A stretch of DNA of 13,749 bases from Candidatus Hermodarchaeota archaeon (lineage in GTDB: Archaea > Asgardarchaeota > Lokiarchaeia > Sigyniarchaeales > SOKP01), in the NCBI GenBank assembly GCA_048885925.1, contig JBHLLG010000074.1, positions 1 through 13,749 on the forward strand, given 5' to 3'. Under the pieces are notes generated by a model. That model saw only the letters and a list, made by a program, of their open reading frames with translations, had not been told where the DNA came from and did no database searches. The position numbers were made by a program, and so were the translations under genes. Position 1 is the first letter of the stretch, and every line of letters starts with the position of its first letter. Below, in pieces: positions 1 through 13,749 of this stretch.

Positions 1-206
1 AATATTCTAAAAACATTGCATATATGATAAACTATAGTAATATTCCGAACTTTATCAATATGATTACATGGGCAAAATCACCTCAGGAGTCTCAAGAGAT
101 TGAAGATGAACTAAATACCGAAGGATTCAAAAGAATTATTCATAGAGTTTTTATATCAACAGAGTGGTATGAATGTTGGATTGATCAGCTGCTTAGAACA
201 AAATAA
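1..206 (+). CDS. 3' end of a tandem Lrp/AsnC-family transcriptional regulator (partial, runs off the left edge); paralog of 7690..8574
   Basis: The frame is open from position 3 (YSKNIAYMINYSNIPNF...EGFKRI...WYECWIDQLLRTK*). It aligns with the C-terminus of 7690..8574 (YSDSFALYFSYSNIPFF...EGLKNI...WYECWIDQLLRTK*). The ATG at 24 is therefore internal. Confidence 0.9.
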   Translation, partial: YSKNIAYMINYSNIPNFINMITWAKSPQESQEIEDELNTEGFKRIIHRVFISTEWYECWIDQLLRTK

Positions 207-349
207 CTTAAAGAATCTATTAGAATTTTGTTGCTTATTGAGTAAAATCCACACAAGAAAAAGTAAAGAAGTAAACGTGCGATTTATCGGGATTGATAAG
301 CAATTGTAATGAAATATGTGCCGATTAGTGAAATAATTATTTCAAATTA

Positions 350-570
350 TTCCTAAATTTCAACCTATTAGTATAATTATTGATACTTAGTATATCCAAT
401 TTTCCTCCTTTAGGAAGAAATTTCCTAGAATTGAATGATTTAGTATGATTATTTATTTCTAAAAATTTCAACAAAAATTGTATTCTCCATTCTAAACTCT
501 TATTTTTCATTTTTTCCAAGCAAGTGAACGTCCTCTTATTAGAGCCCAATTTGTATTAAAAATAATAAAA
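350..570 (+). repeat. Copy A of a conserved intergenic regulatory module
   Basis: Box 1 ttcc-N16-agta at 350-373; box 2 tatc-N16-ggaa at 393-416; promoter-like GAACgtccTCTTATTAGagcccaat from 526. Homologous to 3210-3432, 4322-4560 and 8709-8945. Confidence 0.8.
526..550 (+). promoter_or_regulatory. Putative non-canonical promoter (TATA-like TCTTATTA 534-541 with GAAC upstream and GRRCCC-like downstream)
   Basis: One of five copies of the motif, all on the + strand and about 45-95 nt upstream of a gene start. Here it lies 67 nt before the ATG at 608. Confidence 0.65.
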
Positions 571-607
571 TTAAAAAAAATTTTAAAAAAAAAAAGTGTG
601 AATAAAA

Positions 608-784
608 ATGAATATAAACCAAATGGAATATCAACTGTATTTATTTCATGATATAATACCAAAAAGTCAATATAAATTATACTTTCTTTTGGAAGTGATA
701 AAAACTAAAAGAAAATTAATAGAAAAAATGGTTCCTGCGATTTCGAGGGAAATTATTTTAACTATTGGAGGTATCTTAAAATGA
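608..784 (+). CDS. Small 58-aa ORF (MNINQMEYQLYLFHDIIPKSQYKLYFLLEVIKTKRKLIEKMVPAISREIILTIGGILK), translationally coupled to the ABC ATPase
   Basis: Translated by hand; below the ORF-track cutoff. GTGAA-N5-ATG context matches the start at 10741. Its TGA stop overlaps the next ATG (ATGA 781-784). Confidence 0.5.
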   Translation: MNINQMEYQLYLFHDIIPKSQYKLYFLLEVIKTKRKLIEKMVPAISREIILTIGGILK

Positions 785-1725
785 GTGAAATAATTATTGA
801 AACAAAAAATTTAACTAAAACTTATGATGATACGACCGCTCTACAATCTTTAAACATAAAAGTGCCTAAAAATTCAATTTTTGGATTTCTCGGTCCAAAT
901 GGTTCGGGAAAGACAACTACAATGAAAATGTTATTAGGCCAAATAGAACCTACGAGTGGAAGCGCAATGATTTTTGGACACGATATCAGGGAAAATGTAA
1001 AAATTCATAAAAGAATTGGATACCTTCCACAAGATATACGGTTCTACGAACATATGACTGCTCGTGAAATAATTAGTTTTTCAATGCGCTTCTTTTATGA
1101 AGGCCCAAAAGTTCTAATCGATAAGAGAGTAAATGATATGATAGAATTAGTTGGATTAGAGAATAAAGCTGATAGGGCAGTTAAAAGCTTTTCAGGTGGG
1201 GAACGGCAACGATTGGGGATTGCCCAAGCGGAAGTAAATCAGCCGGATTTACTTATTCTTGATGAACCTGCCTCGGCTTTAGATCCTCTTGGACGACGTG
1301 ATGTTCTTGATCTTATGAATAGATTACGTAAGGATAGAACAATCTTCTATTCTACGCATATATTAGATGATGTACAAAGAGTAAGTGATACAGTTGCGAT
1401 TTTAAATAAAGGAGTTTTAGTTACTCAAGGTCCAATTGAGGAGATTCTTAAAGGAGGAGAGGGTACTATTTACACGGTAAAATTGAAAGGAATTGAAGTG
1501 GAAGAGTTAAAAACTCGTTTACTCAATCAATCATGGGTTTCCGCTGTAAGTGTTGAGCAAGGAAATGTCGAATCATTATGGGATATAAGTATATCTGATG
1601 ATAGTGCTGCAGAAGATAATCTTTTAGGATTACTTCAAGGGAATGGTGGTAAAATTGTTAATTACGGACAAAAAAAGGTTGATTTAGAACAGATTTTTAT
1701 GAAATTAGTGGAGGGAGAAAGTTAA
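781..1725 (+). CDS. ABC transporter ATP-binding protein (ABC-2/DrrA-CcmA-like exporter)
   Basis: Walker A GPNGSGKTT, Q-loop YLPQ, signature FSGGERQR, Walker B LLILDEP, H-loop STH, C-terminal LEQIFMKL; SD GGAGGT upstream. Confidence 0.96.
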   Translation: MSEIIIETKNLTKTYDDTTALQSLNIKVPKNSIFGFLGPNGSGKTTTMKMLLGQIEPTSGSAMIFGHDIRENVKIHKRIGYLPQDIRFYEHMTAREIISFSMRFFYEGPKVLIDKRVNDMIELVGLENKADRAVKSFSGGERQRLGIAQAEVNQPDLLILDEPASALDPLGRRDVLDLMNRLRKDRTIFYSTHILDDVQRVSDTVAILNKGVLVTQGPIEEILKGGEGTIYTVKLKGIEVEELKTRLLNQSWVSAVSVEQGNVESLWDISISDDSAAEDNLLGLLQGNGGKIVNYGQKKVDLEQIFMKLVEGES

Positions 1726-1726
1726 A

Positions 1727-2527
1727 ATGGCAAGTAAAACCGAGATTCTAGATACTAAATATACTGGGCTTATACCCGTTAAAGAGGGTGGAAAATTCCA
1801 AGGATTAAAAAATTTAATGAGAACGGAAATAAGTCGATGGAAACGCACTGGTGGATGGTGGCTACAATTATTAGCAATTTTAGGAATGGCTAATGGTATA
1901 ACTTTCTTGACAATCTTAGGAAGTGGAGACCCGGAAATTGGTCTAATGATCTTCCCTCTTATGGCGGGATTATATATCCCGTTAGTCGCAATGACTTCAG
2001 TTCAAGGAGCTATAGTGGCAGAAAGAACGGAAGGAACTGCTGCATGGGTGCTCTCAAAACCAGTTACGCGACACGCTTTTATTACCTCCAAATTTCTAAC
2101 GAATATTATTAGTATAACTATATCAATGGTTCTTGCGCCCTTTCTATTGATCTACGTAGAATTTAATTTACTTGGGATTCCTGCAAGTTTTCTAGGGACA
2201 ATGATTGCTGCGGGATTTTTCTGGATGTGGTGTATGTTTTGGCTCATTTTAGCTTTAATGTTAGGTACCATTCTGAAAACAAGAAAATCTGTGATGTATG
2301 TAATGCTAACAATTTATATGTTGTTTTTTGGAGTAGGAGATCAAATCCCCGCTATAATCAATCCGCTAATGTTCTGGCCAGAATCAGGATCCACTGGACT
2401 ACTTTCAATGATGTCAGATCAAATCATGGGTACTCTTAATCTAAACTTAGCACCCGTAGTAATAATGGCATGCAGCATCCTATTTTTAGCGATTGCGATT
2501 AAGAAATTTCTAAAATTGGAATTATAA
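1727..2527 (+). CDS. ABC-2 type transporter permease
   Basis: About 6 hydrophobic segments and the motif GAIVAERTEGTAAWVLSKPVTRHAFITSKF typical of ABC-2 permeases. Starts 1 nt after the ATPase stop. Confidence 0.93.
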   Translation: MASKTEILDTKYTGLIPVKEGGKFQGLKNLMRTEISRWKRTGGWWLQLLAILGMANGITFLTILGSGDPEIGLMIFPLMAGLYIPLVAMTSVQGAIVAERTEGTAAWVLSKPVTRHAFITSKFLTNIISITISMVLAPFLLIYVEFNLLGIPASFLGTMIAAGFFWMWCMFWLILALMLGTILKTRKSVMYVMLTIYMLFFGVGDQIPAIINPLMFWPESGSTGLLSMMSDQIMGTLNLNLAPVVIMACSILFLAIAIKKFLKLEL

Positions 2528-2980
2528 AACAAATTTTTTTTTTTTATTCAAAAAAAGATAAAAATTCGATCTAAAAAATTCTCTTTTTTTTCCGACGATA
2601 TTAAAATCTAAGAATAGAAGTGATGTGGTTTTAAGTATTCGTTGTTCAATTGTAGAAATAAAACTGATGGATCTTGTTTCTATACTCCCGGGATCATCTA
2701 AGAATAAATCAAGTGGGATATCAACGAATTCTTCTGAGGAATCTAAATTGAGTAGATAATCAGTTTCAACCTCTCTTACTTTTTCTTGGAATGAATATGA
2801 ATTTTCTTCCCTTTCCTCCTCAGGAAAATTTAAAGAATTTAGTTGATTATAATTATAGGTTACTCTCTTTATATCAACACAGTTATGCTCTTGAAACTTA
2901 ACCTTTGTATAATGGACATATTTCTTAAAATGATAATAAATCTGTTCATAAGTACAAGGAATCTTGTTTATTTCTCCCAT
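2522..2980 (-). CDS. Hypothetical protein (152 aa), acidic central region; the C-terminus may be readthrough or frameshifted
   Basis: A long ORF in very AT-rich DNA with no recognisable motif. The last ~20 codons run through the poly-A/T terminator region and overlap the permease stop. Confidence 0.5.
   Translation of the reverse strand: MGEINKIPCTYEQIYYHFKKYVHYTKVKFQEHNCVDIKRVTYNYNQLNSLNFPEEEREENSYSFQEKVREVETDYLLNLDSSEEFVDIPLDLFLDDPGSIETRSISFISTIEQRILKTTSLLFLDFNIVGKKREFFRSNFYLFLNKKKKFVL
2534..2545 (+). terminator. Oligo-T archaeal-type terminator for the ABC operon
   Basis: A run of 12 T starts 7 nt after the permease stop. Confidence 0.6.
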
Positions 2981-3163
2981 TTTTATAAAGAGTGTCTATT
3001 TTTTAATATTTCAAAAGAATCATAAAATAATTAATTTACATCCTAATTTCTTTATTCATTTTTATTCTTCAAAAATTAAATTTAATCAATCAGAAATTAA
3101 ATAGATATGAGGTGAATTAAAATTAAAGAAATAATTTATAGCAAATATATTAATAACGTAAAA

Positions 3164-3196
3164 CGTTGGGTTGATAAATTACTTAGAACAAAATAA
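3164..3196 (+). pseudogene. Isolated remnant of an Lrp/AsnC gene 3' end (RWVDKLLRTK*)
   Basis: cgttgggttgataaattacttagaacaaaataa matches tgttggattgatcagctgcttagaacaaaataa (174-206). No upstream Lrp body is present. Confidence 0.75.
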
Positions 3197-3209
3197 GAAA
3201 AAGAAAAGA

Positions 3210-3432
3210 CTCCTAAAATTAAACCAACTAGTGAAAAAATTAACATTTTAGGTTCCAAATCATATATCTTTCAGTATAAAAGTTAGGATTTCATAGAATT
3301 CTTTAGACTTTCTGCACTTGAGGAAAACATCAATCTCTCCCTTTAAGTGATTTTAACTTCCCATTATCAGGATTTTTCCGAGTATACGAACATGCTTTTA
3401 TTAGGGCACCTACTAATATTAAAAATAACAAA
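3210..3432 (+). repeat. Copy B of the conserved regulatory module
   Basis: Box 1 ctcc-N16-agtg at 3210-3233; box 2 ttcc-N16-agta at 3253-3276; GAACatgcTTTTATTAGggcacc at 3388-3410. Confidence 0.75.
3388..3410 (+). promoter_or_regulatory. Putative promoter motif (TATA-like TTTTATTA 3396-3403)
   Basis: Copy of the five-fold motif, 73 nt upstream of ATG 3476. Confidence 0.65.
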
Positions 3433-3475
3433 ATAATTATAAAAAAAATAAATAATTTAAAGGGATTTGATTTAT

Positions 3476-4126
3476 ATGAGTGAAGATACAAAAATAAGTA
3501 GTTTAGTTAGATTGATGTTTGTTCTATGGTTACTCACAATGGTGATGCTCTGGGTATTATTTGGTCTTATGACTCTCGAGTTTTTATTCTGGCTCGCCTT
3601 AGGTCTTACTGTTGGTGGACCTGTTCTAGCAATAACATATAAACTAAAAGAGCTAAATGCAGGTGCAGTAATTTTTGCTATTGTATTACTTTGGGTAGCA
3701 TTTGGCGTCTACGGGGGTATTCTGCTTTTCGGTATTGCTTTGACTTTAACAATTTTGGGGCCTATTATTGTGATTATACTCTCTGTAATTAATCGAAAGA
3801 AAGGTCCAAAAAAAGAAATTAAACCGCTAGGAAAACTAGGGCCATTAAATCCACTTGCTTGGTTATGTAATCTAGGGTGGTTAGGAGCGTTAGGAACACT
3901 TTATACATCTCTTTTCTGGCTGTATTTATTGTTTTTCTTAATCCTTCTAGGAATTATTCCATATGATGCTGAAGTACCTGTGAAAAGAAAAAACCGATTA
4001 TGGTTATTAGGATTTTTGGGATTTATTGGATTTCTTTTTGGAGCGTTGTTTTATTGGACATGGTCATTTACTAGCTTATTTACACTATTTATCCTAGGGA
4101 TATTACCAAAAAAGACTAGAGAATGA
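3476..4126 (+). CDS. Multi-pass membrane protein with internal repeats; C-terminal half resembles the DUF3796-type LGFLGFLG motif
   Basis: Highly hydrophobic. Repeat pairs LFWLALGLTVGGP/LFGIALTLTILGP and LGWLGALG...LILLGIIP/LGFLGFIG...LFILGILP. ATG 3476 is preferred over TTG 3467, which forms part of the SD-like TTGAT. Confidence 0.85.
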   Translation: MSEDTKISSLVRLMFVLWLLTMVMLWVLFGLMTLEFLFWLALGLTVGGPVLAITYKLKELNAGAVIFAIVLLWVAFGVYGGILLFGIALTLTILGPIIVIILSVINRKKGPKKEIKPLGKLGPLNPLAWLCNLGWLGALGTLYTSLFWLYLLFFLILLGIIPYDAEVPVKRKNRLWLLGFLGFIGFLFGALFYWTWSFTSLFTLFILGILPKKTRE

Positions 4127-4144
4127 AAATTTAAATACCAATCA

Positions 4145-4153
4145 TTTTTTTTT
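4145..4153 (+). terminator. Oligo-T terminator
   Basis: A run of 9 T lies 19 nt after the stop at 4126. Confidence 0.5.
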
Positions 4154-4288
4154 AATCAACTTCTTCTGGGAAGCATTTATAATCTTCAAACTATTTAAAG
4201 AATTTATAATAAGGAACAGCTTTAATTTATCTAAGATTGAGATTAATCAAGAAAAATTACAAATGAAAATATAATATGTTTTATATCT

Positions 4289-4303
4289 CTTAGAACTAAA
4301 TGA
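4289..4303 (+). pseudogene. Minimal Lrp 3'-end remnant (LRTK*)
   Basis: cttagaactaaatga versus cttagaactaaataa at 8560-8574. It ends 19 nt before module box 1, similar to copies B (14 nt) and D (17 nt). Confidence 0.55.
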
Positions 4304-4321
4304 AATTATATCTATCCATTA

Positions 4322-4560
4322 TTCCAAAATATCAACCAATTAGAATATTTTTTGGTACTTTCAATTCCAAAATTTATTCAATTAAGAGGAAAATATTGAT
4401 TTTGAATGGTTTTCCAGAATTCTTTCTAAATTGTAGATGTATTAATTACATTAAAAAATAAATTTCTATTCAATAAGGTCTAAAGGTTCTTTTTTCTCTA
4501 TTATAGTGAACATCCTCTTATTAGAACCCCAATCTCTATTATAATTACTAAAAAAAATTA
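4322..4560 (+). repeat. Copy C of the conserved regulatory module
   Basis: Alignable to 8709-8945 along its length, including an identical 34-mer (4350-4383 = 8737-8770). Boxes at 4322-4345 and 4365-4388; GAACatccTCTTATTAGaacccc at 4508-4530. Confidence 0.9.
4508..4533 (+). promoter_or_regulatory. Putative promoter motif (TCTTATTA 4516-4523) for the flavodoxin-like/tfb unit
   Basis: Copy of the five-fold motif, 58 nt upstream of ATG 4581. Confidence 0.65.
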
Positions 4561-4580
4561 TATAAAATCTCTTGAATAGA

Positions 4581-5060
4581 ATGAAATTATGGATTATATA
4601 TAAGGAAAAAATTGTAATCTCTAAAACTATAGCTGAGATGATACAGGATCGCTTAGAGGATTATATAGAGGTTTCAGTAGGGACTGCAAATAAGACGGAT
4701 CCTTTATCTTTGGTAGAAGAAAAGTTGGATTACTTGATTATTGGAGATATTTTTGGGGAAAAAATACCAAGTTTAGAGATTCAGAATTGGGTGTTGAAAT
4801 ACAGTGAAGATTCAATATTATGTAATAAAGAACTTCAAGCTTTATCGGGTTTTTATATCTCACTAACAGAGATGGAAAATGATTTAGTCTGGATAGAATT
4901 TCTTCGAAAATATATAAAAGCCAAACTAATATTTCCACCAATCCTTTGTTTAAAGTTAAAAAAATCAGAATTACCTGTAAAGATCGGAGCACTTGAAATA
5001 GTTAAGGATTATTCAAATGATTTTATTGAATATTTATTAAATAGGAATAATAAAAAATAG
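4581..5060 (+). CDS. Flavodoxin-like fold protein, apparently lacking the FMN phosphate-binding loop
   Basis: The N-terminus MKLWIIY...SKTIAEMIQDRL...LDYLIIG follows the flavodoxin beta1-alpha1-beta3 pattern, but KEKIVIS replaces the S-x-x-G-N-T loop. Confidence 0.65.
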   Translation: MKLWIIYKEKIVISKTIAEMIQDRLEDYIEVSVGTANKTDPLSLVEEKLDYLIIGDIFGEKIPSLEIQNWVLKYSEDSILCNKELQALSGFYISLTEMENDLVWIEFLRKYIKAKLIFPPILCLKLKKSELPVKIGALEIVKDYSNDFIEYLLNRNNKK

Positions 5061-5076
5061 GAATAATCATAAAGAA

Positions 5077-5241
5077 ATGAAGAAAATTGATGTGAATGCT
5101 TTGAAGAATTATTTTCTAAGAGGTAAAGTGAAAGTGTGGATAATGTTATTATTCATGTTCCTCATGACGTTAGGTTTGTGTTTATGGGGTCGAATAAAAG
5201 AGATGAGAGGTGATACAAATTACTCAACTCAATTTAATTGA
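5077..5241 (+). CDS. Possible 54-aa single-pass membrane peptide (MKKIDVNALKNYFLRGKVKVWIMLLFMFLMTLGLCLWGRIKEMRGDTNYSTQFN)
   Basis: Translated by hand. It fills the gap between the flavodoxin-like gene and tfb, has one ~18-aa hydrophobic stretch flanked by basic residues, and overlaps the tfb start. Confidence 0.35.
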   Translation: MKKIDVNALKNYFLRGKVKVWIMLLFMFLMTLGLCLWGRIKEMRGDTNYSTQFN

Positions 5242-6181
5242 ACTAAATGATTATGAAAGAAAGTTTAAATCTTTCAATTGGTGTGAAGAATGCGGTGGAA
5301 ATATAATATTTATTTCTGAAACTGGAGAATCAGTATGCCAAGAATGTGGATTGGTGGTTAATGAAAGAGCAATAGACTTATCGCATAGTGATAAAATAGT
5401 ATATACAAATCAAGATATTATAAACAAAAAACATATTGGTTCTTTAATTACTCCTTTAACTCCTGGAGTAGCTTTACATACTATAATACCCACAAAAGAA
5501 ATTAGAAATTCCGACTTAAAAAGAGCAGCAAAATGGAATACAAGGATCTCATGGAATAAGAAAAACATTCTCATTGCTACAAGGGAATTAAAAAGAATTA
5601 GCTCAAACTTGGATCTCCCGGATTATGTTAAAGTTTCAGCTATAAATGTGTATAAAAAAGCATTTAAAATGAACATTATTAAAGGTCGATCTATTAATAC
5701 TATGGTTGCTGCGTGTATTTATTATGCATGTAGAAATCTTAAAATTAACAGGACATTACAAGAGATTCTCGAAGAATGTAATTCTAGTGAGAGAGAATTA
5801 AGAAGTCATTTCAAAGTTTTAGTTAAACTATTAAATTTAAAGATTCCAATGATAGATTTTATTTCATTAATTCCAAAATATATAGCAATTCTGAATTTAG
5901 ATCGTGAAATAGAGAACTTGGTTATAAATTTATTAGAACCTATTAAAGATTCTATGTATATTAACGGAAAGGACCCTAGAGGATTAGTTGCTGGAGCATT
6001 ATATCTTGTATGCAATTTAAAAAAGATACAACTTACTCAACAACAAATTTCCAAAGTGGTAGGTATAAGTGAACTTACAATTCGCTCAAGATATAAAGAG
6101 CTCTTAAAAAATAGAACTGCAATTAATCTAATGAATTCATTTGAAAGTAAAAATCTTATTGCAAGAGAAGCTCAGAAATAG
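5210..6181 (+). CDS. tfb: Transcription initiation factor IIB (TFB) paralog
   Basis: Zn ribbon CEEC-x17-CQECGLVV; two cyclin repeats (IKGRSINTMVAACIYYACR...RTLQEI; GKDPRGLVAGALYL); C-terminal HTH TQQQISKVVGISELTIRSRYKEL. The true start may be ATT 5219. Confidence 0.95.
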   Translation: MIQITQLNLIELNDYERKFKSFNWCEECGGNIIFISETGESVCQECGLVVNERAIDLSHSDKIVYTNQDIINKKHIGSLITPLTPGVALHTIIPTKEIRNSDLKRAAKWNTRISWNKKNILIATRELKRISSNLDLPDYVKVSAINVYKKAFKMNIIKGRSINTMVAACIYYACRNLKINRTLQEILEECNSSERELRSHFKVLVKLLNLKIPMIDFISLIPKYIAILNLDREIENLVINLLEPIKDSMYINGKDPRGLVAGALYLVCNLKKIQLTQQQISKVVGISELTIRSRYKELLKNRTAINLMNSFESKNLIAREAQK

Positions 6182-6297
6182 ATGAAAATTTAATGATTTA
6201 TGAAAAAGAAGTAAACTTGTCCATTTTTAGAAACTCACCTGAAGATATCAGGATAATTGTGAAAACAAATATTCTTTAATTTAATTAATGTTAAAAA

Positions 6298-7512
6298 TCA
6301 TGGATTTACTTTCATTATTTCCTCTTTTATTGCTTCCATGAAGTATTGATTGGCGGAAATAGATTGATTCAAATATTCTAAGCATTTTTTTATTTGTTTA
6401 TAACCATTTCTATGAGTAATTTCATTTTCTCTTCTTTTAAGTTCATCCATAGTTTTATTTATTATGGGATCCCATTTCTCTAAAATTTTAAGCTTTTTAT
6501 ATATCCTTAAAAAATTGGAGAATGCGATAGAATCCATTATATATAATTTCTCACGAACGCCCTTGATTTTTTTTCTTCTAATAAGACCTTCTTTAATTAA
6601 ATAGTTAAGCCCTTGAGAAATCATCCCTGCTGAAAAACCAGTTAATTCCTTAATCTTTTGCTGAGTAAGTTCCTTCCTAAAGATTAAATATGCGATAATC
6701 TCTGAATATTGAGGATTAGATGCTGCAAACATGGGAGAATTTATTGTAAAATTGATAAGATCTTTTTCAATTTCTTCCATTTTTAATCTATACGGATATC
6801 TCTTGGATATATTATCATTTTCAACAACTTCAGATTCATTCTTACCAACTTCTTGAAATTTTTCTAGGCTTTTTCTATATTCTTCTATAGCAATGTATTC
6901 CTTTTTTTTCTCAATAGGAAATTTGGACATAGATTCTTTATGTCTTTCTAAGCGGTAATCTATATATTCAATCATCTCTCTTAATCTTTCAAGAAAAGTA
7001 TTTTTTACGCTGTTCTTGTTTACATTTCTCACTCTAATCTCTTCCAAATTTCTCATTTTTTCTGTATAAAAATTTTTCGCTTTCCTCAATTCTTTATCTA
7101 TGATTTCTGGAGAATGAAAACCTGGAATATTAAGGAATCTAGGATTTAGGAAGTATACATTGCTGAATTGCCATAGATAGAATTTACTTACGCTTCTTGG
7201 AGAAATAAGAACTTGGTTGGTTTTGATTTTTTTTTGTTTGACTACTGATAAATCAAGTAATTCATTTAGATATGAAGATATTGAACCCGATGAAAAACCC
7301 TCTTTTGATCCTTTTTTATAAAATATTTCGGATAAATCTTTAATCTCTTGCTGTGTAAGGGTGTCATGTATAAAAAGATAAGTAAGTATGTGTATTTGAA
7401 TGTCTGATTTCCACTCGAATGGATAGTTTTCTATTGCAAATTCAATTATTAGATTCTCATATTTATATAATTCACTATCGACCAATGGTTTTATAGCAGG
7501 ATTAAACATCAT
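6298..7512 (-). CDS. Tandem-duplicated winged-helix regulator (GbsR/MarR-like, two wHTH domains)
   Basis: Internal repeat: ILTYLFIHDTLTQQEIKDLS...GFSSGSISSYLNELL...KKI versus IIAYLIFRKELTQQKIKELTGFSAGMISQGLNYLI...KKI, each followed by a long helical region. Confidence 0.85.
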   Translation of the reverse strand: MMFNPAIKPLVDSELYKYENLIIEFAIENYPFEWKSDIQIHILTYLFIHDTLTQQEIKDLSEIFYKKGSKEGFSSGSISSYLNELLDLSVVKQKKIKTNQVLISPRSVSKFYLWQFSNVYFLNPRFLNIPGFHSPEIIDKELRKAKNFYTEKMRNLEEIRVRNVNKNSVKNTFLERLREMIEYIDYRLERHKESMSKFPIEKKKEYIAIEEYRKSLEKFQEVGKNESEVVENDNISKRYPYRLKMEEIEKDLINFTINSPMFAASNPQYSEIIAYLIFRKELTQQKIKELTGFSAGMISQGLNYLIKEGLIRRKKIKGVREKLYIMDSIAFSNFLRIYKKLKILEKWDPIINKTMDELKRRENEITHRNGYKQIKKCLEYLNQSISANQYFMEAIKEEIMKVNP

Positions 7513-7562
7513 TCTCTAATGATTTTGTTTCTATAATAATAATAATCAAATAAATATTTAAG

Positions 7563-7584
7563 TTTTTGTGAAATTTCACAAAAA
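7563..7584. promoter_or_regulatory. Perfect 22-bp palindromic operator TTTTTGTGAAATTTCACAAAAA between divergent regulators
   Basis: Exact self-reverse-complement. Flanked by a + strand BRE/TATA (GAAAGA TTTAAATA, 7587-7600) and a - strand AAAAAC TTAAATAT (7554-7567). Confidence 0.8.
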
Positions 7585-7586
7585 GT

Positions 7587-7600
7587 GAAAGATTTAAATA
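7587..7600 (+). promoter_or_regulatory. Canonical archaeal BRE-TATA promoter for the Lrp/AsnC gene
   Basis: Purine-rich GAAAGA immediately followed by TTTAAATA, 90 nt upstream of ATG 7690. Confidence 0.55.
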
Positions 7601-7689
7601 TTCATGTTTTTTAAAAATAATTATATATATTTCAGGATTTGTGAATTTTCATTAATACTGAAAAAATAATAATAAAAGAGTGATTTGAA

Positions 7690-8574
7690 ATGGATAAAAT
7701 TGACCTCGTTATCATTAGAAATTTATTGGAAAACTGTCGCTTAACTTTTAGAGAATTAGCGGATGCGAATTATATGTCCGTTAGTGCTATACATAAACGT
7801 ATAAAAAAGCTTGAAGAAAATGGGATAATTACTGCATATACTGCAAGACCAAGCATAATTGCTTTAAAATGTTTAAAGATCTTGATTTATGGCACATCTC
7901 ACGCAAAATCATTGGATACAATTAGTCAAGAACTTGGTCAACAGGAAAATACGAGATTTGTTGGAATCGCAGGTAATAAATTTCTAATTATTATCGCCTA
8001 TTTAAGGGATATTTCAGAACTTCAAGATTATGGTAGTTTTATATCAAGAACGGCTCAAATAAGCAACCCAACCATAGGCATTATTGATATTCCTTATATT
8101 ACAACCCCAGAACCACTTTCAACAATAGATTATAAGATTTTAAAATGTTTAAATCGAGACGCAAGAAAGTCTATAATGGATATTACTGATGATACTGGCC
8201 TCTCTGCTAAAACAATTAAAAAGCGACTAGAAAGAATGATGGAGAATAATTTAACTGAATTTACGATTGAATGGTTTCCTATGTATGAAAATTGTTTCCT
8301 TATGGGTTTTAATATAACTTTAAACCAAGGAACTGATTTAAGCTCCACCATTGGGATGATTTGTGAAAAATATTCTGATAGTTTTGCCTTATATTTCAGC
8401 TATAGTAATATTCCATTCTTTTTTACCCTTATTATATGTCCTAAAAGCGCTCAAAACGCTCATGAACTCCAAAAAGATTTAGAGAAGGAAGGTCTCAAGA
8501 ACATTACTCCTTTTATTTTATTATCCGTAAAATGGTATGAATGTTGGATTGATCAACTTCTTAGAACTAAATAA
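7690..8574 (+). CDS. Tandem (double HTH) Lrp/AsnC-family transcriptional regulator
   Basis: MDKIDLVIIRNLLENCRLTFRELA...SVSAIHKRIKKLEENGII and a second LSTIDYKILKCLNRDARKSIMDI...GLSAKTIKKRLERM, both AsnC-type HTH domains, each followed by a RAM-like region. SD GAGTGAT. Confidence 0.93.
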   Translation: MDKIDLVIIRNLLENCRLTFRELADANYMSVSAIHKRIKKLEENGIITAYTARPSIIALKCLKILIYGTSHAKSLDTISQELGQQENTRFVGIAGNKFLIIIAYLRDISELQDYGSFISRTAQISNPTIGIIDIPYITTPEPLSTIDYKILKCLNRDARKSIMDITDDTGLSAKTIKKRLERMMENNLTEFTIEWFPMYENCFLMGFNITLNQGTDLSSTIGMICEKYSDSFALYFSYSNIPFFFTLIICPKSAQNAHELQKDLEKEGLKNITPFILLSVKWYECWIDQLLRTK

Positions 8575-8641
8575 AAGATTCATCAATAACAAATAAAGTT
8601 TGATTTTAAGAACTCGAAAACTTCATTTTGTCTTATGAATG

Positions 8642-8692
8642 TCTGCAAAGTGGTATGAGTGTTAGGTAGATCAATTAGTTCGGACTAAATAG
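8642..8692 (+). pseudogene. Second, diverged Lrp 3'-end remnant (SAKWYEC*VDQLVRTK*) just downstream of the intact gene
   Basis: Codon-by-codon match to SVKWYECWIDQLLRTK* with a TGG>TAG nonsense change at 8663-8665 and several synonymous differences. Confidence 0.85.
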
Positions 8693-8708
8693 GCTATTGA
8701 TTTCTTAA

Positions 8709-8945
8709 TCCTAAAATTTCAACTAATTGGAAAAAATTTTGGTACTTTCAATTCCAAAATTTATTCAATTTGGAAGAAAATTTTAAGTTTTTATAGTTTT
8801 TTTGGATTTATTTTAAATTTTAGAGATGTTATTACAATAGAAAATAGGTTTATATTCTACAAGGTCCAAATAGTTCTTTTTTCCAAGCTAGAGAACATCT
8901 TCTTATCAGAGGTCCAATCTCTATGATAATTACTAAAAAAAATTT
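8709..8945 (+). repeat. Copy D of the conserved regulatory module
   Basis: Boxes tcct-N16-ggaa at 8709-8732 and ttcc-N16-ggaa at 8752-8775; GAACatctTCTTATCAGaggtcc at 8893-8915; closely similar to copy C. Confidence 0.9.
8893..8918 (+). promoter_or_regulatory. Putative promoter motif (TCTTATCA 8901-8908)
   Basis: Copy of the five-fold motif upstream of the DUF166 gene. Confidence 0.6.
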
Positions 8946-9001
8946 GAATAAAATTGAGTGAATATCAAAAAATAAGAGATATAAGAAATAGTGGTAGAAA
9001 A

Positions 9002-9727
9002 ATGAAAATTTTAATAATTTCTGATGGAAAATATGGTGATCGTGCAAAGGAAATAATAAAAGACGAATTTCCAAGCACCGAATATTTAATAATTAGAGAA
9101 GAAAACCCAACCATGTTTTTAGAAGAAATTTTTCTTGAGAAAGAAGTCGAAAATGCGATAGAGAATGCAGATCTGCTAATTTTATATGTTCGCCACCCCG
9201 ATGTTGTATACGAAATATGTGCGCGTCAAAAACCTACTATCCTTCCAGTACATTTTGGAATTGGTTTTTTTGAACAGGTAAAGTCTTTAAATTCAAGAGT
9301 AGTACAACCTTCAAGCATGTGTAATGCTTTGCCAGATTATGGAATTAAGGAAATTGACGGATTTTTTACTAAATTTGGAAGACCTATTTATAAAATTCAG
9401 ATAGAAAATATAAAAAATAATCACCCAATAATTAGAGAAGTTAATCTTATCGCTGAAAGCCCTTGTGGTTCTTCCAGAAATACTCTAATATTTTTAAAAA
9501 ACAAACCATTAACTATTGAAACTTTAAATACTTTTGCTATGAGCATCAGACAAGAGTGTGTTGAACCTATGTCGGTTATCTTTAAGAGAGATTTTACCGA
9601 AACAACAGGTCCTATTCATCTTATTAAACTTTTTGATGCAATTGAAGGAGAGGATCCCTCTATTGTGTTAAACGATGACATTTTGAATAATTATATTAAA
9701 AATATCCGTAGAGGATTTCTTAAATGA
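9002..9727 (+). CDS. DUF166 family protein (often loosely annotated 'thymidylate synthase'-like)
   Basis: MKILIISDGKYGDRA start, HPD, SMCNAL, FGRP, SPCGS and a later Cys, as recalled for archaeal DUF166 proteins. ATG 9002 is preferred to TTG 8954. Confidence 0.75.
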   Translation: MKILIISDGKYGDRAKEIIKDEFPSTEYLIIREENPTMFLEEIFLEKEVENAIENADLLILYVRHPDVVYEICARQKPTILPVHFGIGFFEQVKSLNSRVVQPSSMCNALPDYGIKEIDGFFTKFGRPIYKIQIENIKNNHPIIREVNLIAESPCGSSRNTLIFLKNKPLTIETLNTFAMSIRQECVEPMSVIFKRDFTETTGPIHLIKLFDAIEGEDPSIVLNDDILNNYIKNIRRGFLK

Positions 9728-9780
9728 TGAGTGAGTAACAAGAAAAAAAAATATCTTTATTATTTCCTCTTATTTCTATT

Positions 9781-9845
9781 TTTTTTCCTTTGTAACGAAC
9801 ATGCTCTTATTAGAACCCCAATATTTTTTAAAATTAACAAAAAAA
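9781..9845 (+). promoter_or_regulatory. Copy E (promoter-proximal part only) of the module: ttttttcc...GAACatgcTCTTATTAGaaccccaat
   Basis: GAAC 9797, TATA-like 9805-9812. Differs from copy C at one position across GAAC...CCCCAAT. Upstream boxes and Lrp tail are absent. Confidence 0.7.
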
Positions 9846-9907
9846 ATTTTTAAAAACAGTGATAAAAAATTACTCAAACTCAAACATATCAGAATAGAAA
9901 TGAAGAT

Positions 9908-10660
9908 TTGTATGTTTTAGAAGATGAGCAATTAAGTCTTGCTAAAATAGCTGCTTTGAGTATAATTCCCGGCATCATAGCTTTAATTTTTGATATAATT
10001 GCAGCACCATTAGTATTACAAAGTGGATATCCACTACTTTTTACTCTTGTTCTTGCTAATATTATAGTCCTTATACCATCTGAGCTACTAATCCTAATAT
10101 ACTTAGGATATAAAAAGAATAAGAAGGTCTCAATTAAGGGAATTATTCCATATAGAAAATCGATGCCAACCAAGAAGTTAGTAATATGGATTATCATCCT
10201 ATTTGCATACGGTTATGCTATCAATATGCTAATGTTCCCGATCACAGGAGTGCTTAAAAATCTATTTGCTTGGATGCCAGAAGTATTTTTCTCAGTAGAA
10301 TCTGATGTGATTACGACAACCAACTTTCAATTATACTCATCTACAGCATTAATAACTGTTCTAATTGTCGCTTTGTTGGCAAATGCTATACTAATACCAA
10401 TTATAGAAGAAATCTATTTTAGGGGTTTTCTTTTACCTCGTACATCTCGCTTTGGTAAAAATGCTGCAATTATAAATGTATCTCTATGGTCTATATATCA
10501 TATATGGGCACCATGGACCATCATTGCTAATATAATTATATTTCTTCCAATAGCGTACTTGGTAATGAAAAAGCAGGATGTTAGACTGTCAATTTTGGGT
10601 CATATGCTTGCTAATTTTATGCTTGTAGTGATGATAGTACCTCTCCTGATTACGATATAA
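9908..10660 (+). CDS. CPBP family intramembrane glutamic endopeptidase (CAAX/Abi-like)
   Basis: Multi-pass hydrophobic protein with EEIYFRG, WSIYH and GHMLAN motifs. The frame is open back to ATT 9869, a possible real start. Confidence 0.92.
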   Translation: MYVLEDEQLSLAKIAALSIIPGIIALIFDIIAAPLVLQSGYPLLFTLVLANIIVLIPSELLILIYLGYKKNKKVSIKGIIPYRKSMPTKKLVIWIIILFAYGYAINMLMFPITGVLKNLFAWMPEVFFSVESDVITTTNFQLYSSTALITVLIVALLANAILIPIIEEIYFRGFLLPRTSRFGKNAAIINVSLWSIYHIWAPWTIIANIIIFLPIAYLVMKKQDVRLSILGHMLANFMLVVMIVPLLITI

Positions 10661-10740
10661 AGATATAATATCCAGATCTCAAAATAAAATAGAAAACAAG
10701 AGAAATTAAAACAAGATAGCAAAAAAAAGTGTGAAAAGAG

Positions 10741-12252
10741 ATGAAAAAATCAATAATAATCATTGGAGCTGGTGTTGCAGGCTTATCTGCAGGGTGTTAT
10801 GCGCGAATGAATGGATATAATACACAAATCTTCGAAATGCATAACATACCTGGAGGAGTTTGCACAACATGGGAACGTAAGGGATATAAGATTGATGGAT
10901 GTATCCATTGGTTGACTGGTATTAAATCAAGAAATAGTTTTTACCCTATATTTAAAGAATTAGGGATATTACAAGGACGAGAGATGGTTGTTCATGAGGA
11001 TTATGCACGAATTGAGGGGCAAAATGGTAAAATCTTTGTTGTACACACAGATATTGATCGCTTGGAGCAGCATATGAAAGAATTAGCTCCTGAAGACAAA
11101 GAGGCTATAGAAGATTTCACAAACGGGATTCGTAATTGTATTAATTTCCCCCTCCCTATTGAGAAACCAAATGATTTATTTAATTTTATTGATGTGATTA
11201 AATTAATACGTAAGATGCGTCCTTATTTTAAGGTTCTTAAGAAATGGGGTAATGTTACAATTCAAGATGCTTCCAAATATTTCCAAAACCCCTTCTTACG
11301 TGAAGTATTTCCTTTTATTTTCAATCTTCAAAATCCCCCAACATTTCCAATGTTAGCGATTCTTACAACTTTTGCTTGGATGCATCAAAAAGTGTGTGGT
11401 TATCCAATTGGGGGATCTCTGGAGCTTTCTAAATCAATAGAGAAACGTTATCTTTCATTAGGAGGGAAGATCCACTATAGATCGCGTGTCGTTAAAATTT
11501 TAGTTGAAAATGATAGGGCGGTTGGTGTACGGTTGGCTAATGGTGCTGAATATCACAGCGATATAATTATTTCAGCCGCTGATGGTCATACAACTATATT
11601 TAACATGTTAGATGGTAAATATATAAATAAAAAGATCAAGAATTATTACGATCATATGCCAACCTATAAACCATTGGTTTACATAGGACTAGGTGTGGCA
11701 CGCTCGTTTGAAGAGATACCACCTACAGTAACCGGAACTGATTTTCCCCTAAATGAACCAATTACTATAGGAGGACAAGAACGGAACAGATTGAGTTTTC
11801 AGATATATAATTTTGATCCTACATTAGCACCTGCGGGAAAATCATTTATTAGAGTTCATTTCGCATCGGATTATGACTATTGGAAAAAATTAAGAATAGA
11901 TTCTGAGCGATATAAAGATGAGAAGGAGAAAATTGCTAGTCAAGTAATTGCCTCACTAGATAAACGGTTCCCTGGTTTAGCAAACCAAGTAGAAATGTAT
12001 GATGTGGCAACACCAATAACATTCGAACGTTATACTGGAAATTGGAAGGGGAGTTTCCAAGGTTGGGAGGAATCAGTAAAAACTTTAAGGTTGCAAATGA
12101 AAAAAACTCTACCAAGACTAAAAAATTTCTATATGACTGGGCATTGGGTTCAACCAGGTGGAAGCATCCCGTCCTCGGTTATGTCGGGTCGTCATGTAGC
12201 TCAAATTATCTGTAAGGTAGATAAGAATAAATTTAATTCTTATAATCCTTAA
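10741..12252 (+). CDS. Phytoene desaturase-like FAD-dependent oxidoreductase (COG1233/CrtI-like)
   Basis: N-terminal IIIGAGVAGLSAG, GG..TTWERKGYKIDGCIHWL, YPIGG, ATPITFERYTGNWKGS, and C-terminal NFYMTGHWVQPGGSIP. Substrate unknown. Confidence 0.9.
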   Translation: MKKSIIIIGAGVAGLSAGCYARMNGYNTQIFEMHNIPGGVCTTWERKGYKIDGCIHWLTGIKSRNSFYPIFKELGILQGREMVVHEDYARIEGQNGKIFVVHTDIDRLEQHMKELAPEDKEAIEDFTNGIRNCINFPLPIEKPNDLFNFIDVIKLIRKMRPYFKVLKKWGNVTIQDASKYFQNPFLREVFPFIFNLQNPPTFPMLAILTTFAWMHQKVCGYPIGGSLELSKSIEKRYLSLGGKIHYRSRVVKILVENDRAVGVRLANGAEYHSDIIISAADGHTTIFNMLDGKYINKKIKNYYDHMPTYKPLVYIGLGVARSFEEIPPTVTGTDFPLNEPITIGGQERNRLSFQIYNFDPTLAPAGKSFIRVHFASDYDYWKKLRIDSERYKDEKEKIASQVIASLDKRFPGLANQVEMYDVATPITFERYTGNWKGSFQGWEESVKTLRLQMKKTLPRLKNFYMTGHWVQPGGSIPSSVMSGRHVAQIICKVDKNKFNSYNP

Positions 12253-12294
12253 ATACATTTTTTATAGAAAAAATAAAGAAAAAAAATAGTTATA

Positions 12295-13749
12295 TTATTG
12301 AAGCTTATCCTTCATTTCCATGTAGAAGTCCAGCGATTCTGGGTTGCGAAGGGCACCACGATTGGTTATTTCCATCCCATGGATAATTTTATTTACAGCA
12401 ATTTCAACTTTCTTGTTACTGAACGTGTAAGGGATGCCGTCTGGAGGTGTTTGGAAAATTAACCGTGGTACATGTCGCGGAGAGGTCTTTTCTCTTATTG
12501 TTTGAGTGATTTTAGTTCTTAATTCATCCGTAAGTTCATATCCTTCTTTTAAAAGTACAAACATTATGATCCTAATATCACCTTCATATTTCTGACCGAT
12601 AACTAAGGAATCAGCGATTTCTGGGAGCTGTTCAACTACATTATAAATTTCAGCTGTACCGATCCTTACTCCAGATGGTTTTAACACAGCATCGGAGCGC
12701 CCCCAGAAAGTAATTCCTCCAGTATCACTATGAATTACGATATAATCACCATGTCTCCAAACATTTTTACCCTTATCTTTAAAGAAATCAAAATAAGCAG
12801 CATTATATCTTGTCATTTTATCATCATCATCCCAGAAATAGGTTGGCATTGAAGGAGCCGGTGCCTCACATACAAGTTCCGCTTGTTTATCTTCAACAGG
12901 ATGGCCATTCTCATCATATGATTCTACTTTCATTGCCAATGCACGACCTTGTAATTCTCCAGAATAGACCGGTAAAATAGGTATAGCTCCAGCAAAACAA
13001 CCATTAATATCAGTACCGCCACTTATTGAGTTAAAATATAAATCTTTTTTGATTTCACGATAAACATATTCAAATCCCTCCGGAGATAAAGTAGATGCTG
13101 TCTGCGAAATTTCCCTTAGAGCGCTTAGATCATATTTCTCAGCAGGTTTTGCATGAAGACCCATTAAATAATGAATATAGGATGCACTAGTACCAAATAT
13201 AGAAATTTTGTGCTTTTCTATTAATTCAAAAAATCTGAGAGGATCAGGATAAAGGGGATTACCATCATATAAAAAGATAGTTGCACCTACTGCTAATGCA
13301 CTAATTAACCAATTCCACATCATCCAACTTGGAGCAGTAATATAAGTTATAACATCACTTCTTTTGCAATCAGTTGATAGTATAAGCTCCTTTAAGTGAT
13401 TAATAAGAACACCTCCAGCACTTTGAACCATACATTTTGGTTTTCCTGTTGTTCCAGAAGAGAACATTACATAAACAGGATGATCAAATGGTAATTGTTC
13501 AAAGGTAAGCTGAATTTCCTCTTCCTTAGAAATAAAATCTTCCCAATTAACCGCTTTAGGAATATTACTAATATCAGCTTTACCATCAGTGATATAAGAT
13601 ACAACTATGACCTTTTCTATTGAAGGAATGGCTTCTACAACAGTTTTAATATTATCACGTATATCAAAAACCTTATCACGATAATAATATCCATCAACTG
13701 TAAAGAGCACTCTCGGTTTAATTTGACCAAATCTGTCGATTACTGCACT
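12295..13749 (-). CDS. acsA: Acetoacetate--CoA ligase (AMP-forming), 5' end beyond the window
   Basis: FDHPVYVMFSSGTTGKPKC, SWMMWNW, SISGGTDINGCF, VWRHGD, GRSDAVLKPSGVRIGTAEIY, SPRHVP, KKVE, NPESL. The frame is open to the right edge (SAVIDRFGQIKPRVLF). Confidence 0.93.
   Translation of the reverse strand, partial: SAVIDRFGQIKPRVLFTVDGYYYRDKVFDIRDNIKTVVEAIPSIEKVIVVSYITDGKADISNIPKAVNWEDFISKEEEIQLTFEQLPFDHPVYVMFSSGTTGKPKCMVQSAGGVLINHLKELILSTDCKRSDVITYITAPSWMMWNWLISALAVGATIFLYDGNPLYPDPLRFFELIEKHKISIFGTSASYIHYLMGLHAKPAEKYDLSALREISQTASTLSPEGFEYVYREIKKDLYFNSISGGTDINGCFAGAIPILPVYSGELQGRALAMKVESYDENGHPVEDKQAELVCEAPAPSMPTYFWDDDDKMTRYNAAYFDFFKDKGKNVWRHGDYIVIHSDTGGITFWGRSDAVLKPSGVRIGTAEIYNVVEQLPEIADSLVIGQKYEGDIRIIMFVLLKEGYELTDELRTKITQTIREKTSPRHVPRLIFQTPPDGIPYTFSNKKVEIAVNKIIHGMEITNRGALRNPESLDFYMEMKDKLQ

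Follow-up and report, generated by a model that had tools for sequence, protein, structure and literature searches.

Repeated modules in the locus

We analysed a 13,749-nt stretch of DNA from Candidatus Hermodarchaeota archaeon (assembly GCA_048885925.1, contig JBHLLG010000074.1, positions 1 to 13,749 of the forward strand), referred to below as the window. The window is the entire contig, here called C74, of a 3.9-Mb assembly with a GC content of 29%. It carries genes and gene remnants of a tandem-double Lrp/AsnC protein of 294 aa, which we named Lrp2x, together with copies of a noncoding module (A to E), each standing in front of a different gene or operon, its cargo (Table 1). An earlier note on this DNA had described four homologous modules and a partial fifth on one strand. 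A repeat search of the window (families D1-D5 and D12) linked positions 350-570, 3210-3447, 4321-4567, 8708-8952 and 9743-9856, MAFFT alignments showed shared blocks among the modules, and nhmmer matched all five, so that the modules are real and lie essentially where the note had placed them. Module E comprises only the last ~110 nt of a module and was rightly called partial.

The array does not end with the window but continues on a second contig, C56, where a first nhmmer profile made from the window copies revealed three further modules (F, G and H). The end of C56 overlaps the start of the window by 77 identical bases, and this 77-mer is found nowhere else in the assembly. The pieces of the two contigs together complete one Lrp gene (paralogue A). 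Because of the unique overlap and the completed gene, we treated C56 and the window as one ~32-kb locus with eight modules.

The profile used for testing was an nhmmer hidden Markov model (HMM) made from 16 module copies, all taken from other species, so that this genome contributed nothing to it. Searched against the whole 3.9-Mb genome, it recovered all eight modules with E values of 1e-14 to 1e-67; the three copies on C56 had E values of 3e-36 to 1e-67, and the matches in the window are given in Table 1. Its only other matches at E≤1 were the 3' ends of two intact Lrp genes. The earlier note would have been refuted had A and B aligned no better than AT-matched shuffled controls. They survived this test, since 200 dinucleotide-preserving shuffles of the window gave no HMM match at E≤10.

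The Lrp tails upstream of the modules end at the stop codons that the note had listed (204-206, 3194-3196, 4301-4303, 8572-8574 and 8690-8692). No Lrp gene body was found upstream of B and C either by tblastn (E≤1) or with a nucleotide HMM of the gene (E≤10), in agreement with the note. Its statement that module A follows an Lrp tail needs qualification: the tail is present, but ~110 unrelated bases separate it from the module. The cargo genes do differ between modules, as claimed, with identities assigned by Pfam and NCBIfam and with the label 'flavodoxin-like' holding at the level of the fold.

Anatomy of the module and the level of constraint

The anatomy of the module was derived from the consensus of 23 copies and from conservation profiles. 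The module starts within the last codons of Lrp2x, in a segment that we call the tail, GTTGGATTGATCAATTACTTAGAACTAAATGA. About 20 nt past the tail lies a strongly conserved block, TTCCCAAATTTCAACTAAATGGAAAAAATTTTGG, which contains an imperfect 17-bp dyad, TTTCAACTAAATGGAAA, and in which the word AACTAAATG repeats a copy located 41 nt upstream in the tail. This block is followed in order by moderately conserved blocks, a run of seven or eight T residues, the near-invariant core, the box TATTAAAATTAA and an A-run. The core of 28 nt, GAACATGCTCTTATTAGAGCCCCAATCT, carries the dyad GCTCT-TATT-AGAGC, and this dyad, GCTCTTATTAGAGC, ends ~9 nt before the TATA-like box TATTAAAATTAA. With at most one mismatch, the 14-bp dyad occurs five times in the genome, each time inside a module. 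The dyads, like the 'operator pair' of the earlier note, are treated here as candidate binding sites. In all eight modules of this genome, an open reading frame (ORF) on the same strand begins 30-90 nt past the core, often behind a ribosome-binding site, GGTG or GGAG.

Many Lrp2x genes have a conserved box, GAGAAAATTATAATTAA, ~40 nt ahead of their ATG, and the post-core box TATTAAAATTAA resembles it. Owing to this likeness and to its distance from the start codons, TATTAAAATTAA was taken as a putative TATA box. The intact Lrp2x gene of the window does not have the GAGAAAATTATAATTAA box that is common to many of its relatives.

Codon-phase mismatch rates in the module were flat (0.353, 0.365 and 0.362), whereas the Lrp 3' end, taken as a control, gave 0.22, 0.21 and 0.43. 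RNAalifold returned only a 5-bp hairpin with a consensus fold energy of -3.3 kcal/mol and five predicted pairs in 286 alignment columns, and Rfam gave no match in C56 or C74. The constraint on the module acts at the DNA level. No terminal inverted repeats pairing the module ends and no target duplications were noticed in the flanks of the alignment, and the repeat search of the window found no conserved element at the 3' ends of the cargo beyond T-runs (family D10).

The Lrp2x regulator

Pfam matched Lrp2x with PF13404 (E 9e-22) in two stretches, residues 1-42 and ~143-190, and with PF13412 (E 2e-22); the RAM model PF01037 was not among the matches at E≤0.01. NCBIfam matched LysM, AsnC, LrpA and Lrp, all under the equivalog cut-offs. 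The AlphaFold model, made with 12 relatives, had a predicted local distance difference test score (pLDDT) of 89.9 and showed two successive units, each consisting of a helix-turn-helix (HTH) and a beta-alpha-beta-beta-alpha-beta fold, with a short C-terminal helix that corresponds to the tail. Membership in the Lrp/AsnC family is thus supported by the AsnC-type HTH in Pfam and by the RAM-like units in the predicted structure. In Foldseek, many regulators of the Lrp or feast/famine regulatory protein (FFRP) type matched one half each of the model, with 20-27% identity. Searched with a sequence profile of Lrp2x, the PDB gave 23 sequences at E≤0.001, which bear names of Lrp/AsnC-type or transcriptional regulators; the profile aligned residues 1-132 to full-length FFRPs with E values down to 2e-15. 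Lrp2x may be regarded as a single-chain pseudo-dimer regulator.

The best full-length Foldseek match of the model was the siroheme decarboxylase NirDL, a fused double Lrp-like enzyme (4ch7, E 1e-12, template modelling (TM) score 0.6); among the matches listed, no other named Lrp-like fold was aligned along the whole model. However, the identity was only 11-12%, NirDL was absent from the 23 sequences matched by the profile, the Pfam and NCBIfam matches of Lrp2x were regulators, and no haem-pathway genes were found among the locus ORFs scanned by Pfam. The likeness to siroheme decarboxylase is one of fold only, and sequence and gene context do not support such an identity for Lrp2x.

This genome has five close Lrp2x paralogues, all in the locus, and two more with 33-37% identity that are also in the locus. 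More distant ones occur on other contigs, and distant double-Lrp paralogues (~30% identity) have no module. One Lrp2x paralogue of C56 spans positions 5137-6021. On C56, positions 10700-11040 of the minus strand, 3' of a distant Lrp2x paralogue (37%), hold a T-run, AACAT, TCTTA, CCAAT and TATATT in the same order as the end of the module, with no dyad. By its word order this segment could be a much-diverged module, which would make the link between regulator and module older.

Linkage of the module to Lrp2x and distribution across genomes

We collected modules from other genomes using BLAST, the 28-nt core pattern with at most three mismatches, an exact IUPAC pattern, and nhmmer on the fetched loci. 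The census comprised 41 modules, 11 loci that repeated stretches already included having been left out. The counts are lower bounds since diverged copies were missed; those in L025, L028 and L029, for example, did not match the patterns. A full Lrp2x gene lay directly upstream of 20 of the 41 modules and ended within the first ~65 positions of the module. Module A is a 21st linked case, its Lrp2x gene spanning the join of C56 and C74. Two modules had remnants of Lrp2x visible to tblastn (~109 aa and 29 aa), and the remaining 18 had none by tblastn, though several keep 5-18 codons at the DNA level. In 19 of the 20 modules with a full gene, the HMM alignment began 64-68 nt ahead of the Lrp2x stop; the exception is D, where the full Lrp2x gene ends 61 nt before the module. 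In G, H and most copies of other species, the module begins in the last ~20 codons of Lrp2x, spans ~300 nt and is followed by a gene on the same strand. This canonical order of regulator, module and cargo was observed in G and H of this genome and in at least a dozen other metagenome-assembled genomes (MAGs).

With up to three mismatches allowed, the 28-nt core turned up in 8 of the 36 genomes from the genus, one of them G000, but in none of 24 genomes outside it, and a reversed-pattern control gave no match. Close Lrp2x proteins (at least 52% identity) were found in G000, G001, G006, G008, G013, G019 and G042, with a partial one in G011. Close Lrp2x and the core thus occur in nearly the same subset of one genus. 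A scan with the IUPAC core pattern over one genome per species (185,579 species) returned 26 stretches, of which nhmmer identified 22 as true modules and four as bacterial chance matches. The true modules came from Promethearchaeota-type MAGs, except for one Hodarchaeota record and two short contigs from bacterial bins. The latter (L070 and L088; 3.1 and 3.6 kb), binned as Ignavibacteriaceae and Cellulophaga, carry full modules and an Lrp2x 58-60% identical to that of the window. Because Lrp2x is present on both, they are most likely mis-binned Asgard contigs and not transfers.

Decay of the regulator, age of the spread and exchange between modules

Several stages of regulator loss were observed. 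Paralogue H (C56 17090-17200, minus strand) reads AAT AAA AAA ATT GAT where its relatives have ATG GAT (A/G)AA ATT GAT, with a TAA just upstream; it has no ATG, and the first possible start is a TTG ~13 codons in. From these changes it may be a young pseudogene. A copy in G001 encodes Lrp2x with one in-frame TAG. The 3' remnants range from ~109 aa (G001) and 29 aa (G020) through 18 codons (D), ~15 (B), ~12 and ~5 (C and F) to none. Their edges are ragged, with no common breakpoint, and stand before otherwise normal modules, which fits deletion and decay and not site-specific recombination at the tail. The tail codons are separated by just ~20 nt from the first conserved block, and they carry the second copy of AACTAAATG; they may therefore belong to the control region, which could account for the frequent survival of the last codons.

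Mean identity was 0.62 among modules, 0.56 at the third codon positions of the adjacent regulators and 0.71 for whole regulator genes. The divergence of the modules is about equal to that of the regulators' third codon positions, indicating that the spread is old and not the result of recent integration. The regulator and module trees were both star-like, with only two starred branches each, so that their congruence is uninformative. Orthologous units in different species retain their cargo families, and paralogous units differ.

Some modules are more alike than this general divergence. D and H are 90-100% identical from 8650 to ~8775, the dead tail included, and 50-60% identical thereafter; in 40-nt windows the identity reaches 100% from 8690 to ~8770, ~180-300 nt before the start of the D cargo. 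The 3' half of D is closer to C, with core-proximal 40-nt windows reaching 0.82, and A and D share 86% over 35 nt. On one G001 contig, an orphan module and an Lrp-linked module (r23a and r23b) are sisters with support of 100/99. In G020 (L063 473-1112), two modules stand head to tail, with remnants of ~29 and ~12 codons and no gene between them. The D-H tract, the r23a/r23b pair and the G020 tandem can be read as products of recent gene conversion and unequal recombination among the repeats.

Cargo genes

In the window, Pfam assigned the cargo to an ABC ATPase with an ABC-2 permease, TFIIB, DUF166 and an Rce1-like CPBP protein, leaving one membrane protein unassigned, and NCBIfam identified a CrtI-family enzyme. 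Recurrent cargo across species comprises ABC-2 exporters, small membrane proteins, DUF4386 proteins, flavodoxin-fold proteins and Zn-dependent dehydrogenases. The model of the flavodoxin-fold cargo had a pLDDT of 84.8, and Foldseek gave TM scores of up to 0.8 to flavodoxins. The cargo of this locus also includes a flavodoxin, a 4Fe-4S protein, the DUF166 protein, the CPBP protease and the CrtI-family oxidoreductase. From these assignments the cargo set looks like one of redox, detoxification and export functions. The 58-codon ORF between module A and the ATPase gene may represent a genuine small gene, as first cistron of the ABC exporter operon.

The TFB paralogue in the C cargo is divergent (202 bits against a family cut-off of 384). 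It recurs beside an Lrp2x gene in G042 (L066 6285-6617) and 6.5 kb from an orphan module in G013 (L064 16587-17468). A dedicated TFB was considered and rejected, the TFB of the window being one of 10 paralogues in the genome. The truncated form of the module seen in E is also present in another species (L026).

Table 1. Features of the window and modules of the adjoining contig. Positions refer to the window unless C56 is given; HMM, match of the other-species HMM.
Feature	Position	Strand	Remarks
Lrp2x paralogue A, 3' end	3-206	+	67 codons; first 252 codons on C56 17526-18281
Module A	328-610	+	Core 526-552; HMM 328-596, E 1e-17; precedes the 58-codon ORF and ABC-2 exporter genes
58-codon ORF	608-784		Between module A and ABC ATPase gene; overlaps ATPase start by ATGA
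Cargo A	781-2527	+	ABC ATPase 781-1725, ABC-2 permease 1727-2527 (Pfam)
Lrp2x 3' remnant before B	3143-3196	+	~15 codons; no gene body upstream
Module B	3203-3470	+	Core 3388-3415; HMM 3165-3460, E 2e-26
Cargo B	3467-4126	+	Multi-pass membrane protein without family match (Pfam, NCBIfam)
Lrp2x remnant before C	4289-4303	+	Last 5 codons, CTTAGAACTAAATGA
Module C	4315-4581	+	Core 4508-4535; HMM 4289-4576, E 2e-35
Cargo C	4581-6181	+	159-aa flavodoxin-fold protein 4581-5060, divergent TFB paralogue 5210-6181
Intact Lrp2x gene	7690-8574	+	294 aa; two HTH_AsnC domains, RAM-like unit after each
Second, dead Lrp2x 3' end	8627-8692	+	~18-20 codons, in-frame TAG; nearly identical to paralogue H tail
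Module D	8703-8960	+	Core 8893-8920; HMM 8638-8988, E 1e-41
Cargo D	8954-9727	+	DUF166 protein (Pfam)
Module E	9766-9876	+	3' part only: T-run, core 9797-9824, TATA-like box; HMM 9766-9876, E 4e-14
Cargo E	9908-12252	+	Rce1-like CPBP membrane protease 9908-10660, CrtI-family FAD oxidoreductase 10741-12252
Module F	C56 ~922-1269	+	nhmmer
Module G	C56 ~5950-6332	+	nhmmer
Module H	C56 ~16322-15942	-	nhmmer

Origin and proposed function of the module

We consider it probable that the module is a promoter/operator region that was duplicated together with a regulator of the lineage-specific Lrp2x family, later lost that regulator in some copies and was partly homogenised by gene conversion. Direct observations on this point are the homology of the modules, their linkage to Lrp2x, their orientation to the cargo, the decay series, the conversion tract and the lack of a coding or RNA-structure signal. 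Of the two explanations offered by the earlier note, serial duplication of an Lrp gene with its target promoter followed by loss of the Lrp body fits these data, since the canonical unit recurs and intermediates of the loss are all seen.

In the proposed mechanism, the ancestral unit would have consisted of the regulator gene, a control region starting within the last codons of that gene, and a target operon, all on one strand. The conserved T-run would end read-through from upstream. Lrp2x is predicted to bind the core dyad just upstream of the TFB recognition element (BRE) and TATA box and so to control initiation at the cargo promoter, at a presumed start site downstream; the upstream blocks, the 17-bp dyad TTTCAACTAAATGGAAA and the tail might act as auxiliary sites for a DNA-wrapping oligomer. 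By analogy with Ptr2 of Methanocaldococcus jannaschii, activation from a site just upstream of BRE/TATA is favoured, the sign of regulation being our expectation. Local duplication would have multiplied the unit into a ~32-kb cluster with seven Lrp2x paralogues and eight modules. Decay of some regulators would then have left orphan modules, which the surviving paralogues probably serve in trans, with ectopic recombination and gene conversion keeping the modules partly alike and possibly reshuffling the content downstream of them.

Several findings weigh against this reading. For a promoter, ~250 nt of conserved sequence is long, and the core dyad has a 5-4-5 layout and not the 5-3-5 layout that is optimal for archaeal Lrp sites (PMC2715240, in the part available). 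The G020 tandem is not predicted by simple duplication of a unit. G004 (95% complete) and G020 (88%) have modules, and no close Lrp2x was found in them with one query; in these genomes a different factor would have to act on the module. No stop interrupts frame 0 in three of 15 scorable copies (19 in the alignment), and ORFs of 111, 90 and 105 codons that span the module in L025, L024 and L064, respectively, cluster as one family. The open frame and these ORFs in three species hint at an older coding origin.

A rival view is that the module is, or was until recently, a small protein gene starting at an ATG that lies in the Lrp tail (tgg tATG aat gtt gg). Frame 0 is stop-free in D, r22b and r25, where by our own estimate ~6 stops are expected from base composition. 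However, the substitutions lack codon periodicity, the frame holds 4-8 stops in A, C, F, H, r23a, r23b and r28 and shifts between the two halves, and in D and H a stop comes four codons after the tail ATG, which B lacks. The only Pfam match, YnaM-like, had an E value of 0.016 and 15.3 bits against a cut-off of 27. A small ORF was rejected for lack of codon periodicity, its many stops and the absence of a Pfam match above the cut-off; it is refuted as a present-day function for most copies, and we give it hardly any credence. The module could instead act as RNA, as the 3' untranslated region of Lrp2x, a 5' leader of the cargo or a small RNA with a post-transcriptional function. The conserved run of seven or eight T residues before the core could pair with the A-run after it, the conserved 5-bp hairpin GCUCU-uauu-AGAGC shows one compensatory change, and 250 nt of conservation exceeds the need of most promoters. 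On the other hand, the conserved blocks are contiguous words and not paired columns, and with so weak a consensus fold and no Rfam family we rejected an RNA family or structure; a function as RNA appears quite unlikely. The other explanation of the earlier note, capture of cargo at the 3' ends of Lrp genes by site-specific recombination, with the tail as an att scar in an integron-like cassette array, would account for the tail, module and unrelated cargo repeated in this order along one strand of the window. It could also draw on the truncated module E, which is followed by the CPBP and CrtI-like genes here and by a gene for a 389-aa membrane protein in L026, both adjoining the same convergent acyl-CoA synthetase-like gene. 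Yet remnants from ~109 codons to none with no common breakpoint largely refute it, RNAalifold found no foldable attC-like structure, orthologous units retain their cargo families across species, and the cargo 3' ends and the old divergence likewise speak against capture. Integron cassettes are promoterless, whereas each module has its own promoter-like end. As the note had observed, no recombinase is present in the window: six-frame searches with PF00589 and PF00239 and Pfam searches found none on C56 or C74, and no recombinase or transposase domain occurred in the 20 locus ORFs scanned with Pfam. In the six-frame search of the genome, the tyrosine recombinase model PF00589 had only two matches, on C51 and C76, and the serine recombinase model PF00239 had none; a scan of C56 found no tRNA as an integration target. 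We regard site-specific capture as very improbable.

A further possibility is that the tail and module form a self-spreading, non-autonomous 'mobile promoter' that is copied independently of the regulator, by ectopic recombination or a trans-acting enzyme, and recruits genes to Lrp2x control. The concept has been published (PMC3575422), and it would suit the orphans in unrelated, conserved housekeeping surroundings (L029, L062, before a 570-585-aa gene), the G020 modules with no cargo between them, the closest relationship between an orphan and an Lrp-linked module of one contig (r23a and r23b), the D-H tract and an A/T-rich inverted repeat of 9-11 nt that flanks the core in the consensus and in several copies. 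Against it stand the low copy number with all eight copies of this genome in one ~32-kb locus, the lack of terminal inverted repeats at the module ends and of visible target-site duplications, the ragged 5' ends, the divergence of most copies to the level of the regulators, and the lack of any recombinase or transposase family among the ORFs scanned on C56 and C74. Spread of this kind seems unlikely to us. A MITE or other miniature transposon was rejected, as paired end repeats are absent, all eight copies lie in one locus and no target duplications were noticed. We see a similarly small chance that the tail and module form a recombination-competent promoter cassette, in which the tail and core would serve as homology anchors by which ectopic recombination and gene conversion repeatedly bring the control region before new genes, an enzyme-free gene capture that would enlarge the Lrp2x regulon of Asgard archaea. 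Its footprints would be the G020 tandem, the orphans in housekeeping surroundings, the D-H tract and the swap of cargo beside the same flanking gene.

Under the preferred reading, a duplicated and partly orphaned control region, the locus is a sharply defined and testable regulon with one regulator family, a 28-nt core, eight promoters here and 41 across the collected loci. It would also be a legible record of regulon growth by joint duplication, stepwise decay of the regulator, retention of the promoter before new genes, and conversion. To our knowledge, hardly any experiments have addressed how Asgard archaea regulate their genes. If binding by Lrp2x proves true, the locus would provide the first operator-level model of transcription control in Asgard archaea and an example of archaeal promoter reuse.

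Comparison with known systems

The closest parallel in layout is Ptr2 of Methanocaldococcus jannaschii. According to the available part of a review (PMC2995911), the Ptr2 gene adjoins its target and its reading frame overlaps that target's control region. Likewise, the ORF of Lrp2x abuts or overlaps the putative control region of a co-directional target, as judged from the start of the HMM alignment and from the joint conservation of tail and module. The same part of the review places activating Lrp sites just upstream of BRE, with extra upstream sites and DNA wrapping being common; the activating dimer site of Ptr2 lies a few bases upstream of BRE/TATA with more sites upstream, an arrangement that is predicted from sequence for the module. 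Its table gives fdxA, rb2 and rbr as Ptr2 targets and labels the process electron transport, to which the flavodoxin-fold proteins, flavodoxin, 4Fe-4S protein and Zn-dependent dehydrogenases found here bear some likeness. Unlike Ptr2, Lrp2x is a single-chain fusion of two Lrp units, its control region of ~250 nt is conserved as a block across paralogues and species, and the arrangement is multiplied eight-fold in one locus, with half of the copies lacking the regulator.

The operators of archaeal Lrp/FFRP regulators such as FL11, Ss-LrpB and LysM are dyad-symmetric, AT-centred sites, often multiple and phased, with wrapping of ~100 bp or more, as far as described in the parts available (PMC2995911, PMC2715240); the optimum in the latter has 5-bp arms around a 3-bp AT centre. 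The candidate dyads of the module resemble these sites apart from the longer centre of the core dyad, and a fused pseudo-dimer such as Lrp2x would not necessarily require symmetry in its site.

The term 'putative mobile promoters' has been applied to promoters used again in front of unrelated genes (Matus-Garcia, Nijveen, van Passel 2012; PMC3575422). In common with them, the copies of the module are homologous noncoding sequences that precede non-homologous genes of a single genome and carry no known mobile element. The definition used for them requires ≥80% identity along ≥50 nt in the region from -150 to -50, whereas most pairs here share 55-75% overall. In addition, the copies here are clustered and tied to one regulator gene family, with their origin visible in gene remnants. 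Integron cassettes also form one-directional arrays of short conserved noncoding units alternating with unrelated genes, but here there is no integrase, no attC structure and no fixed boundary, and each unit has its own promoter.

The earlier note knew of no named element with such a layout. A narrow literature search of main texts likewise found no description of the fused Lrp2x family or of the module and, among the matches listed, nothing on fused or tandem Lrp regulators and nothing relevant on Lokiarchaeal promoter architecture; the layout is nevertheless comparable to those of Ptr2 and the putative mobile promoters, so that the claim of novelty holds only in part.

Other observations in the window

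Between a divergent winged HTH gene (6298-7512, minus strand) and the intact Lrp2x gene, positions 7534-7653 contain a 40-nt imperfect palindrome that includes a perfect 14-bp palindrome, TGTGAAATTTCACA, with a similar word, TTTGTGAATTTTCA, 73 nt further on. By its position, this site could be an operator of the 404-aa MarR-like protein. At the right edge of the window, the last 77 bases (13673-13749) recur without mismatch at an end of contig C179 (2.9 kb), and the acyl-CoA synthetase-like gene located there probably continues on that contig.

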